DNA from: an uncultured Acidobacteriota bacterium
GTDB lineage: Bacteria; Acidobacteriota; Thermoanaerobaculia; Multivoradales; SZUA-115
Assembly (NCBI GenBank): GCA_963805975.1
Contig: CAWDVR010000003.1
Location: forward strand, 448,001 to 512,000
Direction: 5' to 3'
DNA: 64,000 bases
The translations under genes were made by a program, and so were the position numbers. A model generated the notes under the pieces. That model had not been told where the DNA came from. It did not search any database and saw only the letters and a list, made by a program, of their open reading frames with translations. Of this stretch, positions 18,231 to 27,165 are shown in pieces (the stretch's first letter is position 1; the number at the start of each line of letters is the position of its first letter).

Positions 18231-19139
18231 TCAGCACTCTTTGTAGTGGCGCTCCATGGCATGCATCTTCTTGGTCGGTGTATTCAAGCTGTCACCGTAC
18301 CAGTCGGCGAGGTAGGTGGAGCACATCACTTTCTTCGGTGCCAGGTTGCCGACCCATTCGGCACAGCCGTAGGGGCACGGAGGGAGCTCGGCATAGAGCC
18401 AGTCGAGGCTGGCACCGGCCTGGAGAAGGCTCTTTTGGGTCTCAGCACCGTCCGTCTGGTAGAACGTGACTCCTAGCTGCTCGCAAACCTTCTGGAGTGC
18501 GCCGCGCTCGGCGTGGCTGGGTGCGGTTCCGCCGGTATTGCTGCGCGCAGTACCGGTGACCACCTTGCCCTTTTGGCTGGTCGCCTGCGCCATGGCGAAG
18601 CAGCAGAGTGTGCTTCCCTCCTTCTTGCGCAGCGTTCGCACCGGCTGGAGGATCTCGAGATCGGAGGAATCGACCTCCTCGAGCTTGTAACCCTTCCGTA
18701 GCTCGGCTCGTGGCTGCTGGAGGGGCGGCGCGGAGAGCCGGCGGAGGGCGTAGTCCATACAGAAGCTGTGATGTTGCCAGGGGACCTGCTGCTCCTTGAT
18801 CCACTGGAAGACCGCCGGCAGCGAGCCGAGCTGGTCGATCTGCGAGCGGTACCAGCCTTCCAGCTCGTCGTAGTCCGGGATCTGGGGATCCGTGGTGTAG
18901 GTGATCTCCTCCATGCGCTGGATCGTGCGCGAGGGCCACGGCGGCGGCGAGATCACGGGGCGCCAGCCTGCCGGATGCGCGATGCGCGCCCTCATCGGCT
19001 GCGCCGCGGGAGCCAGGGCCCGCGCCAAATGCGGCGCCAGCGGTATGGGAGCGGGAGCCACGGCGGGTTGCCCGACGCTGGCGATCATCCGCGCCACGTG
19101 CGGCGCGAGCGGCCGCGCTGGAGCGGCGTTGGGTTGCAC
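18231..19139 (-). CDS. Zn-dependent nucleic-acid deaminase domain protein (polymorphic-toxin type) with low-complexity N-terminus
   Basis: HAE ... WLYAELPPCPYGCAEW (HxE/PCxxC-type). The frame is open upstream to a CTG at 19217 behind GGAGG, so the start is uncertain. Confidence 0.72.
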   Translation of the reverse strand: MQPNAAPARPLAPHVARMIASVGQPAVAPAPIPLAPHLARALAPAAQPMRARIAHPAGWRPVISPPPWPSRTIQRMEEITYTTDPQIPDYDELEGWYRSQIDQLGSLPAVFQWIKEQQVPWQHHSFCMDYALRRLSAPPLQQPRAELRKGYKLEEVDSSDLEILQPVRTLRKKEGSTLCCFAMAQATSQKGKVVTGTARSNTGGTAPSHAERGALQKVCEQLGVTFYQTDGAETQKSLLQAGASLDWLYAELPPCPYGCAEWVGNLAPKKVMCSTYLADWYGDSLNTPTKKMHAMERHYKEC

Positions 19140-19299: not shown

Positions 19300-20538
19300 T
19301 CAAGGACGCTCTGCCAAGAAATCGAGCATCGTCGCGAGCGTCTCGCGCTCGAGGATCATCTCGAAGTGCGGGCCGTGGAGGTCGAAGGGCGGGTGGGAGA
19401 GGGCAGCGCTCTCCTGGGGCGAGAGAGAGTGCTGGCTGGCCTGGGCGGCGTGGCCGTCGCCGCGGGCCCTGGCGAGGGCCGCGAGCCTCGGCCGCGCCTC
19501 CAGCCAGGGGTCGCCGGTGAAGTGCGTCCGCCAGCGCCCGCCGCTTTCCACGAGCACGGCACGCCAGGGTGTGGGCTCGTCGAGGCTCTGGAGCGAGGCG
19601 TAGCGAGTGGCGCCGAAGGTGGGCGAGTCCGCTGCGAGGAGCTTGCGCAGGCGCCGGGCGCGGTCCAGGGAACGGGTGAGGAGGGCCAGGCGGTCCTCCT
19701 CCGGGCCCAGGAGGTCGAACGGCTTCACCGCCAGGCGTCGCGCCGCCCTCGCGCCCCAGATCGACCAGCCGTAGCGCCGCCAGCTCTCGGCCGCGAAGAG
19801 GTCGATGGCGAGTGGCTGGCCCTCCTCGTCCAGGAAGAGGTCCGCAGGCTCGGTCGGCAGATCCTGGTAGAGCGACGGGAACGTGAACAGGGTCTCCGGC
19901 GCCCAGGTCCGACCGACGAACCCGGCGTAGGAGCGCCCGCGGTTCATCTCGCGGAGGATGCGGAGACTGCCGGCGTTGGAGGTGCCGACCAACAGGAGCT
20001 GCTCGATCACGACGCCGGGGACCGGGGCCGCCCGCCCGGCCTCCGCCTCTTCGAGCGAGGCCGCGCCGTACTTGGCGAGGTACCGGCAGATGCGCTCCCC
20101 GGCCGACTGGCAGATGAGCGCCACCCGCAGCTCGGGGCCGCCGCGCAGCTCGTGGAGTGCCTCGAGCCGCGCGGCGAGCGAGGCCACGGCCTCAAGATTG
20201 TCCTGCCGCCAGTCATAGGGGAAGACGAAGAAGCTCTCACCGGGCTCGGGGTCGAGGAGGTTGCCGGCCGTGAAGCCGTTGGCCTCCAGCAGGCGGACGA
20301 TGGGGCCGTAGACGTCCTTTTTCCACATGCCAAGCGGCAGCGGGATCTCCTCGATGACGTCGAAGGCCGTGACGCTTCGCGGCTTCAGACCGGGCTTCAC
20401 CGGCAGGGCCAGCGCCCTCCCGCCGTCCCGCGGCGAGAACAACCGCGCCGCCGTGCCCCACTCGACGCGGCAGGTCTCCTCGTCGCGAAGCTGCGAGCCC
20501 GTGATCCCCGGTACCAGCACTACCACCCGCTCGCCCAC
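19300..20538 (-). CDS. Alpha/beta hydrolase, LCAT/lipase-acyltransferase-like
   Basis: VVLVPGITGSQL, FPYDWRQD, CQSAG nucleophile elbow, GTSNAGS, GDG near the C-terminus, late His. Confidence 0.78.
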   Translation of the reverse strand: MGERVVVLVPGITGSQLRDEETCRVEWGTAARLFSPRDGGRALALPVKPGLKPRSVTAFDVIEEIPLPLGMWKKDVYGPIVRLLEANGFTAGNLLDPEPGESFFVFPYDWRQDNLEAVASLAARLEALHELRGGPELRVALICQSAGERICRYLAKYGAASLEEAEAGRAAPVPGVVIEQLLLVGTSNAGSLRILREMNRGRSYAGFVGRTWAPETLFTFPSLYQDLPTEPADLFLDEEGQPLAIDLFAAESWRRYGWSIWGARAARRLAVKPFDLLGPEEDRLALLTRSLDRARRLRKLLAADSPTFGATRYASLQSLDEPTPWRAVLVESGGRWRTHFTGDPWLEARPRLAALARARGDGHAAQASQHSLSPQESAALSHPPFDLHGPHFEMILERETLATMLDFLAERP

Positions 20539-20601: not shown

Positions 20602-21237
20602 CTAGAGGCTCACCTCTCCGGCCGGTCTGCTCCGGTTGCGGTAGAGGCTCTCGTCCACGGCACCGATCATCCTTTCGAGGTCCAGGCGGTGGTCGAGGAA
20701 GGCGTTCATGCGCTCGGCCTCGGCGCGGGGGTTGGCGACCACGGCCTTGTAGTCCACGTACAGCACCTCGAACTGCGGCGCGGTGCGCAAGAGGTACTGC
20801 GCCTTCCAGAGGTGGTCCTCGAAGACCTCGGTCATGCGCCCGTCGCCGGCCGCCGGCTCTTCGCCGCGGTGTGCGAGCATCTTCTGCTGCGAGGCCAGCA
20901 CCTCGCCCAGGTCGCGCCGCAGGAAGATCACGCGGTAGTTGTTGGCGGCCGGGAGCTCCTTGAGCAGATAGGAGATGACCTTGATCGCCTTGCCGCGGGC
21001 GGCCCGGAGCCAGCTCTTGTCGGTCTCGTTCGCCAGGTCCTTGACCCGCTCGTGCTCGAAGTAGCCCTTGGGGTTGTCCTCGTCGGCGGTGCGCAGGCCG
21101 TCGGTGTGAGTGACGAGGCCGCCGGCTTCGAGCATCTTCATCGCCATCGAAGTGCCGGAGCGCGGCAGCCCCGAGACCACGACGACCGGCTCGCCGTGGC
21201 GCAGCCGCCGCCAGGTCCGTTGCAGTGGAGAAGCCAT
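20602..21237 (-). CDS. Sulfotransferase family protein
   Basis: VVVSGLPRSGTSM (PAPS-binding loop), DNPKGYFE, RRDLGEVLASQ. Confidence 0.85.
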   Translation of the reverse strand: MASPLQRTWRRLRHGEPVVVVSGLPRSGTSMAMKMLEAGGLVTHTDGLRTADEDNPKGYFEHERVKDLANETDKSWLRAARGKAIKVISYLLKELPAANNYRVIFLRRDLGEVLASQQKMLAHRGEEPAAGDGRMTEVFEDHLWKAQYLLRTAPQFEVLYVDYKAVVANPRAEAERMNAFLDHRLDLERMIGAVDESLYRNRSRPAGEVSL

Positions 21238-21359
21238 CGTCTGGGCCGCTTGATCTGTCGAGGGGCTTGTCGCTACACTCCGAAGGCCGCCCGGCCCGCG
21301 GGCGGACTTTTATAGCACACGCTTCCACGATCCCCTACGCCGCCGCCCCGAGCCCCCGG

Positions 21360-23543
21360 TTGATCGCTCCACCTCGCTCCGTACGACCTCGCCTGCGCGC
21401 CGGATGGCTGCTCGCGGCCGGCTGCGCGCTGGTGGCGGCCTGGGCCCTGCCCGCCCAGGGCTACATCGGCCCCGGCGCCGGTTTCGCGCTGCTGTCGTCG
21501 TTCATGGTGGTCCTCACCACCATCATCCTCGCCTTCCTCTCGCTCCTCATCTGGCCATTCCGCGCTGTCTACCGGCGGCTCTCCCGCGGCAAGGCTCCCA
21601 GGCCGGTGATCAAGCGGATGATCGTGGTCGGTTTCGACGGCCAGGAGCCCAAGCTCACCGACCGCTGGATGGCCGAGGGCAAGCTCCCCAACTTCAAGCG
21701 GCTGGCCGAGATGGGCTGCTACCGGCGGCTGCGCTCCACCTACCCGTCGATCTCGCCGGTGGCTTGGTCCTCGTTCTCGACCGGCACGCACCCGGCCAAG
21801 CACAACATCTTCGACTTCCTGGACCGCGACCGCCGCACCTACCTGCCGATGCTGTCCTCGACCCACATCGGCGGCGTCGACAAGTTCTTGAAGATCGGCA
21901 AGTGGAAGATCCCGCTCGGCAAGCCGGACATCCGCCTGCTGCGGCGCTCGACGCCGTTCTGGACGCTCTTGGGCGAGCGCGGCATCTGGAGCACGGTGCT
22001 CCGCGTGCCCATCACCTTCCCGCCGGACAAGTTCTACGGCGCCGAGCTCTCGGCCATGGCGGTACCGGACCTCCTGGGCACGCAGGGCACGTTCCTGCTC
22101 TACACCACGCGACCGGCGCGCAAGTTCAAGGAGGGCGGCATCCGGGTGGGCCTCGAGCCGGCCGCAGGATCGAACGGCGCGCGGTTCGAGACCCGGATCG
22201 ACGGCCCGGAGAACTCCTTCCTCGAAGGCAGCCCGCCGCCGCCGCTCTCGGTGCCGATGGCGATCGAGCTCGATCGCGCCGCGGGAACCGCGAAGGTGAA
22301 GATCGGCGACGAGGACGAGCTGACCTTGAAGCCGAGCCAGCTCAGCGGCTGGGTGACCCTCCCCTTCAAGGCCGCGCCCGCCGTCAAGGTGAAAGGCATC
22401 TGCCGCTTCCAGGTGCTGGAGATGGGCGAGCACTTCTCGCTCTACCTGTCACCGATCAACATCGATCCCGACTCGCCGGCCATGCCCATCGCCCACCCGT
22501 CCTACTACGCCACCTACCTGGCGAAGAAGCTCGGCCCCTTCGCCACGCTGGGGCTGGCGGAGGACACGTGGTCGCTCAACGAAGGCGTGGTGGACGACGG
22601 CACCTTCCTGCAGCAGGCCCTGGACATCGACGACGAGCGCCGGGGGATGTTCTTCGCGGCGCTCGACCGCCTGCGCAAGGGCTCGCTGGTCTGCGTGTTC
22701 GACGCCACGGACCGCGTGCAGCACATGTTCTGGCGCTATCTCGAGAAGGGCCACCCGGCGACCCAGGGCAAAGAGGCGGGGCCGCACGCCAACGCCATCG
22801 AGGAGCTGTACCAGCGAAACGACGCGCTGGTCGGCCAGGTGATGAAGAAGCTCAGGAAGGGCGACCTCCTGATCGTCTGCTCGGACCACGGCTTCACCTC
22901 CTTCCGCCGCGGCGTCAACCTGAACGGCTGGCTGCTCGCGAACGGATACCTGGCGCTCAAGGAAGGCGCGGACGGCTCGGGCGAGTGGCTGGCCGACGTG
23001 GACTGGTCGAAGACCCGCGCCTATGCGCTGGGCCTCACCGGCATGTTCCTCAACCTGAAGGGCCGCGAGGCGCAGGGCATCGTCGAGCCGGGCGCGGAGG
23101 CCGAGGCGCTCAAGGCCGAGATCCTCCGCAAGATGTCCGGTCTGAAGGACACGGAGAAGAGCGAGATCGGCATCAACGAGGTGTTCGACACCGCCAAGCT
23201 CTATAGCGGCCCGTACCTCGAGAACGCGCCGGACTTCATCGTCGGCTACAACCACGGCTACCGCGTGTCGTGGGACTGCGCGAGCGGCATGGTGGCGGGG
23301 CCCGTCTTCGAGGACAACGTGAAGGCGTGGAGCGGCGACCACTGCGTGGACCCGCGGATCGTGCCCGGCGTGCTGTTCTCGAGCCACGCGATCGACGACG
23401 ACGACCCGGCGCTGATGGATCTCGCGCCCACGGCGCTCCGCCTGTTCGGCCTGGAGCCGCCCAAGCACATGGACGGCAAGCCGCTGTTCAAGCCCGGGCC
23501 GCTCGAGACGGACCCGTTCGCGAAGCCGGTGGTGGCGGGATGA
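21360..23543 (+). CDS. AlkP-superfamily (type I phosphodiesterase/NPP-like) membrane-anchored enzyme with N-terminal YIGPG segment
   Basis: GFDG, LRSTYPSISPVAWSSFSTG, TDRVQH, SDHGF, WSGDH. Start placed at TTG 21360 before the signal-like segment; the ORF is open from 21225. Confidence 0.85.
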   Translation: MIAPPRSVRPRLRAGWLLAAGCALVAAWALPAQGYIGPGAGFALLSSFMVVLTTIILAFLSLLIWPFRAVYRRLSRGKAPRPVIKRMIVVGFDGQEPKLTDRWMAEGKLPNFKRLAEMGCYRRLRSTYPSISPVAWSSFSTGTHPAKHNIFDFLDRDRRTYLPMLSSTHIGGVDKFLKIGKWKIPLGKPDIRLLRRSTPFWTLLGERGIWSTVLRVPITFPPDKFYGAELSAMAVPDLLGTQGTFLLYTTRPARKFKEGGIRVGLEPAAGSNGARFETRIDGPENSFLEGSPPPPLSVPMAIELDRAAGTAKVKIGDEDELTLKPSQLSGWVTLPFKAAPAVKVKGICRFQVLEMGEHFSLYLSPINIDPDSPAMPIAHPSYYATYLAKKLGPFATLGLAEDTWSLNEGVVDDGTFLQQALDIDDERRGMFFAALDRLRKGSLVCVFDATDRVQHMFWRYLEKGHPATQGKEAGPHANAIEELYQRNDALVGQVMKKLRKGDLLIVCSDHGFTSFRRGVNLNGWLLANGYLALKEGADGSGEWLADVDWSKTRAYALGLTGMFLNLKGREAQGIVEPGAEAEALKAEILRKMSGLKDTEKSEIGINEVFDTAKLYSGPYLENAPDFIVGYNHGYRVSWDCASGMVAGPVFEDNVKAWSGDHCVDPRIVPGVLFSSHAIDDDDPALMDLAPTALRLFGLEPPKHMDGKPLFKPGPLETDPFAKPVVAG

Positions 23544-25501
23544 GGGGCAGGGTAAGGGTCTCTGCCCTTGCGGCGCTCGGTCTCGCGCTTCTCACTCTCG
23601 CCGCCTGCGGCAGGAAGCACGACGCCAACGGCCCGCGCATGATCGTGCTCGGCTTCGACGGCATGGACTATGCGCTGACGCAGAAGCTCATGGCCGAGGG
23701 GCGGCTCCCGAACCTCGCCAAGCTGGCGGCGGAGGGCGGCTTCCAGTCGCTCGCCACCGCCGTGCCGCCGCAGAGCCCGGTCGCCTGGTCGAACTTCATC
23801 ACCGGCCTCGACGCCGGCGGTCACGGCATCTTCGACTTCATCCACCGCGACCCCAACACCATGACCCCCTACCTCTCGACCAGCCACACCGAGGCGGCGG
23901 GGAACGTGGTCAAGATCGGCAAGTACCAGTTCCCGCTCTCCGGCGGCAGGGTGGAGCTGCTGCGCCACGGCCAGCCGTTCTGGGACGTGCTCGAAGCGCA
24001 CGGCGTCGAGACCACCGTGGTGCGCATGCCGGCGAACTTTCCGCCCTCGGAGAAAGCGACGCGCGAGCTCTCCGGCATGGGCACGCCGGACATCCTCGGA
24101 ACGCCCGGCACCTTCACCTTCTACACCTCGGAGCTCTTCGCCTACTACGGCAAGCAGGTTTCGGGCGGCGAGGTGCACGAGGTCTTCGTCGAGGACGGCA
24201 TGGTCAAGGCCCAGCTCTACGGGCCGAACAACCCCTTCCTCTTGAAGTCCGAGAAGGTGGCGGCCGACTTCACGGCGGTGATCGACCCGGTGGAGCCGGT
24301 GGTCAAGCTCAGCGTGGGCGACGAGCAGCGGGTGCTGAAAGTAGGGGAGTGGAGCGACTGGGTGCCGGTCGACTTCAAGCTCATCCCCACCCAGAACCTG
24401 CGCGGCATCTGCCGCTTCTATTTGAAGTCTTTGCAGCCGGAGTTCCAGCTCTTCGTCTCGCCGATCAACTTCGACCCGCTCGCCCCGGCGCTGCCGCTCT
24501 CGCACCCGGAGGACTACGCGGCCGAGCTGGCGGAGGCCACGGGCCGCTTCTATACCCAGGAGATGCCGGAGGACACCAAGGCCTACAAGGAAGGCATCTT
24601 CTCGACCGACGAGTTCCTGACCCAGGCGCGCTACGTGGTCGACCACATGATCGAGCAGTACGACTACGTGCTCTCCCAGTACAGCTCGGGCCTGCTGTTC
24701 TACTACTTCGGCAACACCGACCAGGTGGCACACATGATGTGGCGCACCCTGGACCCCGGCCACCCGGCCTACAGCGCCGAGAAGGACGGGCCGTACGAGG
24801 ACGTGATCCCGGCGCTCTACGAGAAGTTCGACGGCATCGTCGGCCGGACCCGCGAGCGGATGCCCGCCGGCACCATGCTGGTGGTGATGTCCGACCACGG
24901 CTTTTCTTCCTGGCGCCGGGCGGTACACCTCAACTCCTGGCTGCGCGACAACGGCTACCTCGTGCCGCTCGATCCCGGCCGCAAGACCGACGCCGGCTAC
25001 TTCTCGAACGTCGACTGGACGAAGACGCGCGCCTACGCCCTGGGCCTGAACGGCCTCTACGTCAACCTCAGAGGGCGCGAGAAGAACGGCATCGTCGAGT
25101 CGACCGATCGCCTGCCGCTGATGAAGGAGATCGCCGGCAAGCTCCTCGCGCTCACCGATCCCAAGACCGGCGAGCGGGCCGTCACCAAGGCCTACCTCCG
25201 CGAAGAGGTCTACCAGGACCGGGAGTACATCGAGATCGGCGCCGACATCCAGGTCGGCTACGCCAAGACCTACCGCGGCTCGAACGAGTCGGCCCTGGGC
25301 GGCATGACCGAGGAGCAGTTCACGGACAACCTGAGCGCCTGGAGCGGCGACCACTGCATGGACCACGAGGCCGTGCCCGGCGTGCTGTTCACGAGCCGCA
25401 AGCTCCGGAAGCCGGCCACCAGCCTGAAAGACCTGGCGGCCTCGATCCTCACCGAGTTCGGAGTGGAAGGGTTTCCGCTGCGGGAGCGCCGCTCGCCCTA
25501 G
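23540..25501 (+). CDS. Second AlkP-superfamily enzyme, predicted lipoprotein; paralog of the upstream gene
   Basis: ATGA overlap; LTLAAC lipobox; GFDG, PPQSPVAWSNFITG, TDQVAH, SDHGF, WSGDH. Confidence 0.87.
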   Translation: MRGRVRVSALAALGLALLTLAACGRKHDANGPRMIVLGFDGMDYALTQKLMAEGRLPNLAKLAAEGGFQSLATAVPPQSPVAWSNFITGLDAGGHGIFDFIHRDPNTMTPYLSTSHTEAAGNVVKIGKYQFPLSGGRVELLRHGQPFWDVLEAHGVETTVVRMPANFPPSEKATRELSGMGTPDILGTPGTFTFYTSELFAYYGKQVSGGEVHEVFVEDGMVKAQLYGPNNPFLLKSEKVAADFTAVIDPVEPVVKLSVGDEQRVLKVGEWSDWVPVDFKLIPTQNLRGICRFYLKSLQPEFQLFVSPINFDPLAPALPLSHPEDYAAELAEATGRFYTQEMPEDTKAYKEGIFSTDEFLTQARYVVDHMIEQYDYVLSQYSSGLLFYYFGNTDQVAHMMWRTLDPGHPAYSAEKDGPYEDVIPALYEKFDGIVGRTRERMPAGTMLVVMSDHGFSSWRRAVHLNSWLRDNGYLVPLDPGRKTDAGYFSNVDWTKTRAYALGLNGLYVNLRGREKNGIVESTDRLPLMKEIAGKLLALTDPKTGERAVTKAYLREEVYQDREYIEIGADIQVGYAKTYRGSNESALGGMTEEQFTDNLSAWSGDHCMDHEAVPGVLFTSRKLRKPATSLKDLAASILTEFGVEGFPLRERRSP

Positions 25502-25520: not shown

Positions 25521-25715
25521 ATGTTTGGAACCGTCAAGATAAAGCTCGACAAGGAACTGGTCGAGCGGGTGAAGAAAGTGAGCGACGTGGCCGGGTACTC
25601 CTCGCCCGAGGAGTTCATCACCCATGCGCTCGAAAAGGAGCTGGCGAAGCTCGAGGACGCCGGCTCCGAAGAAGAGATGAAGAAGCGCCTGCGCGGTCTC
25701 GGCTACATCTCCTGA
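25521..25715 (+). CDS. 64-aa ribbon-helix-helix-like protein ending in KKRLRGLGYIS
   Basis: AAGGAG RBS; VKIKLDKELVERVKKV...GYSSPEEFITHALEKEL (RHH pattern). Confidence 0.82.
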   Translation: MFGTVKIKLDKELVERVKKVSDVAGYSSPEEFITHALEKELAKLEDAGSEEEMKKRLRGLGYIS

Positions 25716-25719
25716 GGCG

Positions 25720-26568
25720 ATGTCCACCGTCAACGCCCTGCTGCGCCCGCTGTTCGACGCGTTGCTCTCCCCCTTCGCGGGCCTGCCCGCCTGGGCGGGG
25801 CTGGCGGTGGTGTCCCTCGTCGTCTCGGTGCTGATGCTCCTGGTCTACAAGCGGTTCTCGAACCAGGCCAAGCTCGAGGAGGTCAAGCGCCAGATCTACG
25901 CCGGCATCTTCGAGATCCGCCTGTTCAACGACGACTTCCGCGCCATCTTCCGGGCCCAGGGCGAGATCCTGCGCCACAACCTGCGCTATCTGGGCTACTC
26001 GCTGGTGCCCATGGCGTGGATGCTGGTGCCGCTGCTGCTGATCGTGGCGCAGCTCCAGTTCCACTACGGCTACGAGGGTCTGAAGCCGGGCGAGCCGACG
26101 CTGCTCACGGTCAAGCTCAAAGAGGACTGGAGCAGCCGTTCGCTGGCGGCCGACGCCACGGGCAAGCCGCGGGTGACCCTGGAGGCGCCGGCGGGCTTCA
26201 CGGTGGAGACCCCGGCGGTGTGGTCGCCGTCCGAGAAGGAGCTCGCCTGGCGGGTGGTGGCGGAGCGTCCGGGAAGCTACGAGCTGAAGCTCCAGGCCGG
26301 CGGCGAGCCGCTCGCCAAGTCCGCCGTCAGCGCGGACGAGATCATCCGCCGCTCGCCGATCCGGGTCGGTACGAGCTTCTTCGATCAGCTCCTCTACCCG
26401 GCGGAGGACCCGGTGCCCGCCGCGAGCGCCGTCGAGTCCATCACTCTCGGCTACCCCGAGGCCGAGGTCAGCCTCTTCGGCTGGAACACGCACTGGATCA
26501 TCGCGTTCCTCATCCTCACGATCGTCTTCGCCTTTGCCCTGAAGGGGTTGTTCGGGGTGACGATCTAG
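25720..26568 (+). CDS. Membrane protein, DUF106/EMC3-TMCO1 (Oxa1 superfamily)-like, with a beta-rich extracytoplasmic insert
   Basis: Amphipathic N-helix, TM1, SNQAKLEEVK helical hairpin, SLVPMAWMLVPLLLI TM2, soluble domain, C-terminal TM. Confidence 0.65.
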   Translation: MSTVNALLRPLFDALLSPFAGLPAWAGLAVVSLVVSVLMLLVYKRFSNQAKLEEVKRQIYAGIFEIRLFNDDFRAIFRAQGEILRHNLRYLGYSLVPMAWMLVPLLLIVAQLQFHYGYEGLKPGEPTLLTVKLKEDWSSRSLAADATGKPRVTLEAPAGFTVETPAVWSPSEKELAWRVVAERPGSYELKLQAGGEPLAKSAVSADEIIRRSPIRVGTSFFDQLLYPAEDPVPAASAVESITLGYPEAEVSLFGWNTHWIIAFLILTIVFAFALKGLFGVTI

Positions 26569-26576
26569 CGCTCTGA

Positions 26577-26605
26577 TTGACGCCTCGCTCGTGGCGGAGT
26601 ATGTT
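26577..26605 (+). promoter_or_regulatory. Sigma-70 promoter of the mazEF-like operon (probably leaderless)
   Basis: TTGACG-N17-TATGTT; ATG at 26612 with no RBS. Confidence 0.6.
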
Positions 26606-26611
26606 CACGGT

Positions 26612-26842
26612 ATGAAGTTGAAGACATCCGTCACACTTTCAGAAGAGACAGTCCGAGCGCTCGACGAGATCGCGGGCCCGGGCGGGAACCGCTCGCGGGT
26701 CATCGAGGAAGCGATGGGCGAGTTCGTGCGGCGCCGGAGCCGAGAGCTGCGCGATACGCGTGACCTCGAGATCATCAACCGCAACGCCGAGCAGCTCAAC
26801 CGCGAGGTCGAGGACATCCTGGCCTACCAGACGGAGCCGTGA
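26612..26842 (+). CDS. RHH antitoxin of a MazF/PemK-type TA module
   Basis: [32 protein letters not shown]; GTGA overlap with the toxin gene. Confidence 0.85.
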
Positions 26843-27165
26843 GGCGCGGAGACCTCTATCGCGTCCGCCGGCCGGGTGGAGGTGATCCCAAGAAGAGCCG
26901 GGTCTTCGTCATCGTCAGCCGCGAGGCGCTCGTCGAGTCCCGGTTCTCCACCGTGATCTGTGCTCCGGTGCTCAGCCAGCGCGATGGGCTCGCCACTCAG
27001 GTGGACGTCGGCCCGGACGATGGGTTGAAGCATGCCTCGAGCATCCACTGCGACGCGCTCGTCAGCCTCCCGAAATCGGTACTCACGGACTACGTGAGCT
27101 CCCTCGGTCCAGGGAGCATCCGCGCCCTGGACCGAGCGCTTCGCATTGCCCTTGCTGTGGAGTGA
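26839..27165 (+). CDS. mazF: MazF/PemK family endoribonuclease toxin
   Basis: [39 protein letters not shown]. Confidence 0.9.

Follow-up and report, generated by a model that had tools for sequence, protein, structure and literature searches.

A conserved LxGLGY tail on a 64-residue RHH-like protein, probably supplied in trans to a neighboring tail-less AlkP enzyme in an uncultured Acidobacteriota bacterium

A small protein encoded in the 64,000-nucleotide stretch of DNA analyzed here (the window) ends in a tyrosine-containing tail, and the two AlkP enzymes and the sulfotransferase encoded beside it lack such a tail. The question raised by this locus is whether the tail is supplied to those enzymes in trans, as the initial annotation had proposed, and what it would do there. 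The features concerned, numbered from the first position of the window, were as follows.

20602 to 21237, minus strand: ST, a P-loop sulfotransferase (Sulfotransfer_3) that is encoded divergently to the operon and ends LYRNR
21238 to 21359, no strand: divergent intergenic region, in which a -10-like hexamer is the only element enriched in relatives
21360 to 23543, plus strand: AP1, a tail-less NPP-type AlkP enzyme of the Ser type, with a likely TTG start at 21360 in a frame open from 21225
23540 to 25501, plus strand: AP2, a tail-less paralogue of AP1 (40% identical) with the lipobox LAAC
25521 to 25715, plus strand: MINI, the 64-residue protein with an RHH-like fold and a C-terminal tail, with an ATG start preceded by AAGGAG
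25530 to 25658, plus strand: RHH-like body of MINI, consisting of the strand TVKIKLD, a helix, a GYSS turn, and a helix with conserved E31, H35, E38, and E40
25668 to 25712, plus strand: tail of MINI (residues 50 to 64), an acidic helix followed by L57-x-G59-L60-G61-Y62
25704 to 25706, plus strand: codon of Tyr62, inside the tail
25720 to 26568, plus strand: MEM, a membrane protein with an inserted Ig-like domain, predicted to belong to the Oxa1 superfamily (EMC3/TMCO1/DUF106-like)

ORF translation gave SEEEMKKRLRGLGYIS as the C terminus of MINI. A sequence search returned 2115 relatives of comparable length, and R-L-x-G-L-G-Y was invariant among the best 120 of them. A search with a MINI profile, which had two type II RHH-tail sequences (described below) in it, returned 1605 cluster representatives at 50% identity (E up to 0.001). 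Across 105 normal-length, diverged representatives of 50% clusters, L57, G59, L60, G61, and Y62 were conserved at 94 to 99%, and the body was mostly variable. Because of the number of relatives and the retention of the motif in both close and diverged sequences, neither the ORF nor its tail can be ascribed to chance. The tail was terminal in 139 of 149 newly listed representatives; the tail Tyr was kept at 99 to 100% in the MINI alignment, with no Phe replacement noted among the 149 representatives listed. MINI and its tail are thus real, conserved, and undescribed in the open-access literature searched, in which no mention of LxxLGY or RLxxLGY and no description of an AP1-AP2-MINI-MEM module were found. 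Fourteen longer proteins matched MINI, and four of these carried an AlkP domain. Those four were treated as frameshift artifacts and rejected as genuine fusions because they came from single-contig records with scrambled stretches in the sequences read.

The RHH-like nature of MINI, also part of the initial annotation, was supported by sequence and by a structural model. An N-terminal strand precedes two helices joined at a Gly turn, as in RHH proteins, and G25 was 97% conserved. The match to Pfam RHH_1 (E = 0.005) fell under the cutoff. The AlphaFold model of the monomer contained three helices (pLDDT 80), and its best Foldseek match was the RHH domain of NikR (probability 0.92, E = 0.56, rmsd of 1.7 Å over 45 columns); almost all of the other rows were RHH proteins as well. 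No useful match was obtained when the PDB was searched by sequence with MINI or AP2 as the query. From its sequence, MINI is predicted to dimerize in the RHH manner, and single-chain double-RHH variants (P0180, P0201, P0230, and others) retained one tail. MINI shares the strand-helix-helix fold with the repressors CopG, Arc, and MetJ and the N-terminal domain of NikR but differs from them in its conserved tail, in the acidic/His face of helix 2, and in scoring below Pfam and NCBIfam cutoffs. Unlike NikR, it comprises only 64 residues and lacks the C-terminal nickel-binding domain (NF002815, 15 bits versus a cutoff of 83).

ORF translations and C termini confirmed that the tail is borne by MINI and is missing from the neighboring enzymes: AP1 ends in DPFAKPVVAG, AP2 in FPLRERRSP, and ST in LYRNRSRPAGEVSL, the ST family ending in LYRNR and not in LGY. 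Both AP1 and AP2 matched PF01663. The bimetal ligands of AP1 (D9, D367, H371, D425, H426, and H577) were invariant in 74 sequences and are those of NPP-type enzymes, and its Ser nucleophile (codon at 21753) aligned with the Thr nucleophile of ENPP1. The formylglycine sulfatase signature C/S-x-P-x-R was found in neither AP1 (PSISPVAW) nor AP2 (PPQSPVAW). The pair resembles NPP/ENPP enzymes and the phosphonoacetate hydrolase PhnA in family, metal ligands, and nucleophile position but differs from them in having Ser for Thr, a large insertion, only weak PDB matches (best E = 3e-5), and a predicted paired arrangement on both membrane faces. With signals and topology read by eye and by pattern, the catalytic domain of AP1 is predicted to be cytoplasmic because the protein begins with a signal-peptide-like segment and a YIGPG motif (Tyr at 21462; YxGPG in 97/100 AP1 sequences), together with a single TM helix and a basic stretch. 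AP2 is predicted to be exported, and its relatives carried lipoprotein, Sec, or twin-arginine (Tat)-like signals.

Across 80 related loci, gene order around MINI was constant. AP1 or AP2 lay directly 5′ of MINI in 77/77 assessable loci (three lacked upstream sequence), MEM lay directly 3′ in 79/79 (one lacked downstream sequence), and ST was present in 66/80. In a tally of 301 genomes of the phylum, which includes the unpublished G024 as one row on which no claim depends by itself, 90 had an orthologue of AP2 at E up to 1e-140 and 89 had MINI, all 89 overlapping; in the sole genome with AP2 and without MINI, AP2 was at a contig end. ST orthologues occurred in 59 of the 89 module genomes versus 13 of the 212 others. 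No ST match was found in the remaining 30 module genomes, 7 of which also lacked AP5. ST and AP3 were never found together in the 89 module genomes (59 with ST only and 10 with AP3 only), a contrast inflated by kinship. Mutual exclusion of ST and AP5 was considered and rejected, both being present in 14 module genomes. At distant loci, genes for APS kinase, Sat-like proteins, and CysD adjoined the module. These counts overstate independence because the genomes are kin; independent events are few, with about three carrier types, the counts being of relatives.

MEM is predicted to be Oxa1-like. The family has a three-TM core and a cytoplasmic coiled coil after TM1, as in the Oxa1 superfamily, with moderate scores, and PF01956 matched 19/74 members (best E = 3e-6). 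The best fold match was the 177-residue multipass-translocon chain 7tut_8 (Z = 9.1, rmsd of 3.8, 136 residues aligned), with a Z score in the range reachable by chance for helical bundles. Matches to YidC and EMC chains likewise covered both ends of MEM, and the Ig-like domain was the sole Foldseek match. MEM resembles EMC3/TMCO1/DUF106/YidC insertases in its PF01956 and 7tut_8 matches but differs in being bacterial, in its Ig-like insertion, and in being tied to an enzyme operon.

Other genes of the window near the module were also noted. An LCAT-like alpha/beta hydrolase (19300 to 20538, minus strand) lies downstream of ST and was placed outside the module because it was kept there in only 1/80 loci. 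A 302-residue ORF (18231 to 19139, minus strand), Pro/Ala-rich at its N terminus, carries a zinc deaminase-like domain at the C terminus (PF00383, E = 7e-5) and looks like a polymorphic-toxin-type deaminase. Directly after MEM, a MazEF/PemIK-like toxin-antitoxin pair (26591 to 27165, plus strand) has its own promoter-like site and was not detected in any of the 80 related loci.

The tail itself was not confined to MINI. LxxLGY ended 11 likely genes in the same genome, including 9 sulfatase-like genes and MINI. When tails just ahead of a C-terminal extension were counted with terminal ones, 16 of 21 sulfatase-like proteins without a formylglycine motif were tailed, compared to 0 of 7 with CxPxR (28 proteins matching a sulfatase-like profile), and the C/S-x-P-x-R signature was found in none of the 16. 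One of the five untailed non-formylglycine proteins was frameshifted, with the tail in the next frame, and another had a degenerate terminal copy. A tailed sulfatase-like/TPR gene of this genome (C4:424230-426435) is spread over two frames, possibly through a sequencing frameshift. The view that RLxxLGY is common to bacterial sulfatases, AlkP proteins, and sulfotransferases accordingly held in this genome for non-formylglycine sulfatase-like proteins and failed for CxPxR sulfatases and for the ST family.

Elsewhere, the tail was found on APS kinases, as an extension past the normal last helix, on CysD, and on other COG3379-like enzymes, and one APS kinase was fused to an RHH-like segment and tail (L157:5762-6499). 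Two further RHH-tail types were distinguished, with type II heading AP3-cysC operons and type III heading sat-AP3-cysC operons. In many proteins the tail was internal, with TPR domains after it. A common fusion family of about 900 residues joins an NPP-type AlkP domain, an internal LGY tail, TPRs, and an ST-family sulfotransferase (for example, L281:3579-6365 and P0285-P0404); an ST domain, 47% identical to the sulfotransferase of the window, was present in each of the 120 best matches to this family, and G-Y was invariant in them. The LxxLGY pattern is at the same time a generic end of a helix, seen inside many unrelated proteins, and the best PDB match to the tail profile was the last helix of APS kinase (7yq0, E = 0.09).

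That the module is needed wherever tailed proteins occur was rejected. By a narrow DNA pattern, tails were present in 66/89 module genomes, 61/102 genomes with other AP relatives, and 14/110 with none, and G007, G026, and G042 had 18 to 24 tailed genes in the absence of the module. Outside the operon, additional AP2-like genes (L086, L092, and L097) were each found tail-to-tail with a tailed sulfatase-like gene.

The distribution of tails in sister clades bears on supply in trans. None of 202 enzymes of the AP1/AP2 clade was tailed. Loci of the closest clade, APL, were drawn from metagenomes and genomes irrespective of tails, and a tree of 72 AlkP proteins, built by a quick method with tails removed, served solely for naming clades. 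Contig ends cut 30 of the 68 APL loci, leaving 38 that were informative. MINI was found in none of the 38, and the next gene was a tailed AP3 in 35, with another gene next in 2; in the remaining locus (L218), APL itself was tailed in cis, behind a decayed AP3 remnant. AP3 proteins not following APL were untailed in 26/26 cases, 23 of which had a tailed neighbor. Two AP1-like genes were followed by non-RHH peptides of 58 and 62 residues (L221 and L224) that bore an LxGLGY tail and had no Pfam match. With carrier classes set by profile and pattern, Gly three residues ahead of the Tyr was present in 98/100 MINI proteins, 36/38 tailed AP3 proteins, and both of these peptides, compared to 1/18 sulfatase-like proteins, 0/16 sulfatase-like proteins of the same genome, 0/25 extended CysC proteins, and 2/25 members of another class. 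Because of these swaps and the Gly pattern, the Gly-type tail can be said to track the AP1-type enzyme while its carrier varies, and because related gene sets carry the tail on other proteins, it is likely the tail, and not the RHH part, that is the working part.

Not every relative conformed. Single exported relatives of AP1/AP2 of about 700 residues (AP0; L121 to L130 and L132 to L135) occurred in many genomes without MINI; no tailed gene was found within 5 kb in the 14 AP0 loci, whose neighborhoods were varied and in which no sulfation genes were seen. No tailed neighbor was present in the locus sequence examined for L176, L188, and L220, and at some loci MINI also adjoined tailed sulfatase-like genes. 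The expectation that tail-less AlkP enzymes co-occur with MINI and tailed ones do not was therefore borne out for AP1/AP2 and, with another carrier in the place of MINI, for most informative APL loci, and not for AP0 or for the loci in which MINI sits beside tailed sulfatase-like genes. Taken with the absence of tails from AP1/AP2, the presence of MINI in 89 of the 90 AP2 genomes, and the carrier swap, and set against the AP0 loci, these results make supply of the tail in trans to the AP1-type enzyme probable.

Separate peptides of 59 to 77 residues that combine a TM helix with the motif Y-x-G-P-[DE] precede APL genes (L167:5011-5244, L185:138-320, L188:2912-3109, L191:5703-5882, and L214:5767-6000). 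They correspond to the module that is fused at the N terminus of AP1 (YIGPG), whose Tyr is a second conserved one and is predicted to lie on the outer face.

A possible function of the supplied tail is a sulfate relay. The RHH part of MINI would act as a dimeric holder and present the LxGLGY tail to AP1 at the cytoplasmic face. The tail would dock on AP1, ST would transfer sulfate from PAPS to Tyr62, the catalytic Ser of AP1 would accept sulfate from the Tyr62 aryl sulfate, and MEM and AP2 would carry the relay on to an envelope acceptor. We infer this relay, in all of its chemical steps, because a single chain elsewhere unites ST, the tail, and an AlkP domain, because tails occur on enzymes without the sulfatase hydrolytic motif, and because the Tyr is almost never replaced. 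All evidence for this explanation is genomic, comprising gene order, tail conservation, the carrier swap, the AlkP-tail-TPR-ST fusion, and the association with genes for PAPS synthesis. Supply in trans combined with a covalent tyrosine sulfate-carrier step is plausible, falling somewhat short of probable. The transferred group could be phosphate-based instead of sulfate because AP1 and AP2 are NPP-like. More tentatively, and with some doubt, LxxLGY may be a portable tyrosine sulfate-carrier arm in an undescribed bacterial sulfation network, in which a PAPS-dependent sulfotransferase would load the arm, non-formylglycine AlkP-fold enzymes, whose present annotation is sulfatase or phosphodiesterase, would take the sulfate off it and so work as sulfotransferases, and AP1-AP2-MINI-MEM would relay sulfate across the inner membrane via an Oxa1-like groove, doing for sulfate what the DltX/PatA shuttle does for acyl groups.

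DltX and PatA have C-terminal Tyr peptides (FXYXXF motif) that shuttle acyl groups, either as part of an enzyme or as a microprotein of their own (PMC12148441). The tail of MINI is like them in being a short C-terminal motif with an invariant Tyr that occurs both in enzymes and on a microprotein, and their two-sided membrane arrangement with a Ser acceptor enzyme can be likened to the MINI module. MINI differs in having LxGLGY and not FXYXXF, in its partners (AlkP-fold, P-loop sulfotransferase, and Oxa1-like proteins, not MBOAT/SGNH), and in being soluble and predicted to be cytoplasmic, with covalent loading of its Tyr conjectural. A second parallel is offered by Agl30 and Agl31 of Halobacterium salinarum, AlkP-superfamily sulfatase-like proteins that, according to the main text of the report, are required for glycan sulfation and not desulfation (PMC11980604). 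The pathway described there is archaeal N-glycan sulfation, unlike the bacterial MINI module, and no mention of PAPS, a donor, or phosphosulfate was found in that main text (PMC11980604).

The same genomic data would be accommodated nearly as well if the tail were an unmodified, noncovalent docking helix that in trans completes the nucleotide pocket of the AP1-type enzyme or its oligomer surface; the Tyr might, for instance, stack against the adenine in PAPS or PAP. Co-occurrence and carrier swaps are equally compatible with such a helix, the tail looks like the final, structural helix of APS kinase, and the covariation of the Gly suits shape recognition. However, tails are carried by many unrelated folds (APS kinase, CysD, RHH, two AlkP branches, and membrane-type peptides), often behind a low-complexity linker, which better suits a mobile arm, and the near-complete retention of the Tyr described above, with no Phe noted among the representatives listed, also argues against it. 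We regard the docking helix as rather unlikely.

A regulatory role for MINI was weighed against the upstream sequences. MINI might be an RHH transcription regulator of sulfation genes, with the tail as a sensor whose state tunes DNA binding. Such a role is favored by the fold, by conserved K6 (72%) and K8 (83%) in the RHH strand, in which position 4 was variable, and by the operons that types II and III head. Moreover, the palindrome CACTC-N5-7-GAGTG was found in 8 of 20 upstream regions of type II genes (L112, L142, L148, L149, L153, L154, L268, and L270; shuffle mean of 0.28, maximum of 2). In these sulfate-activation operons it occupied either the promoter or the operon start, one half overlapping the ribosome-binding site in most of the eight, and is a candidate operator of an undescribed regulator of PAPS-synthesis genes. 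Because of this enrichment, type II RHH-tail proteins probably bind DNA. However, the palindrome was found in 0 of 85 MINI-type (type I) regions, and in 85 nonredundant regions upstream of AP1 no conserved repeat or operator was found other than the -10-like hexamer, by a scan that did detect the type II site. In addition, MINI is internal to its operon, has no net positive charge, and, unlike the RHH repressors, is replaced in sister loci by carriers that are not RHH or DNA-binding proteins. Regulation by MINI is therefore unlikely, in line with the view of the initial annotation that it may not be a simple repressor, with the palindrome of its type II relatives counting in favor of a regulatory role. 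It is very unlikely that the tail instead serves as an address or assembly tag (for membrane targeting, complex assembly, or degradation) that is recognized by MEM or some other common machinery and not by active sites, since, despite the invariable adjacency of MINI to the Oxa1-like MEM, the APL-AP3 loci and the type II and III operons are tailed with no MEM in the locus sequence examined, and tails placed internally ahead of TPR domains are unlike a C-terminal degradation tag.

The tail bears on two questions: how bacterial envelope molecules are sulfated at a distance from the PAPS of the cytoplasm, and how sulfatase-like proteins such as Agl30 and Agl31 add sulfate. Were it merely a docking helix, it would still be an unannotated interaction motif common to thousands of proteins. 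If the tyrosine sulfate-carrier reading is true, a protein of the Oxa1 family would gain a role in group transfer, and many annotated sulfatases, among them 16 from this one genome, would turn out to be transferases that can be recognized by their tail.
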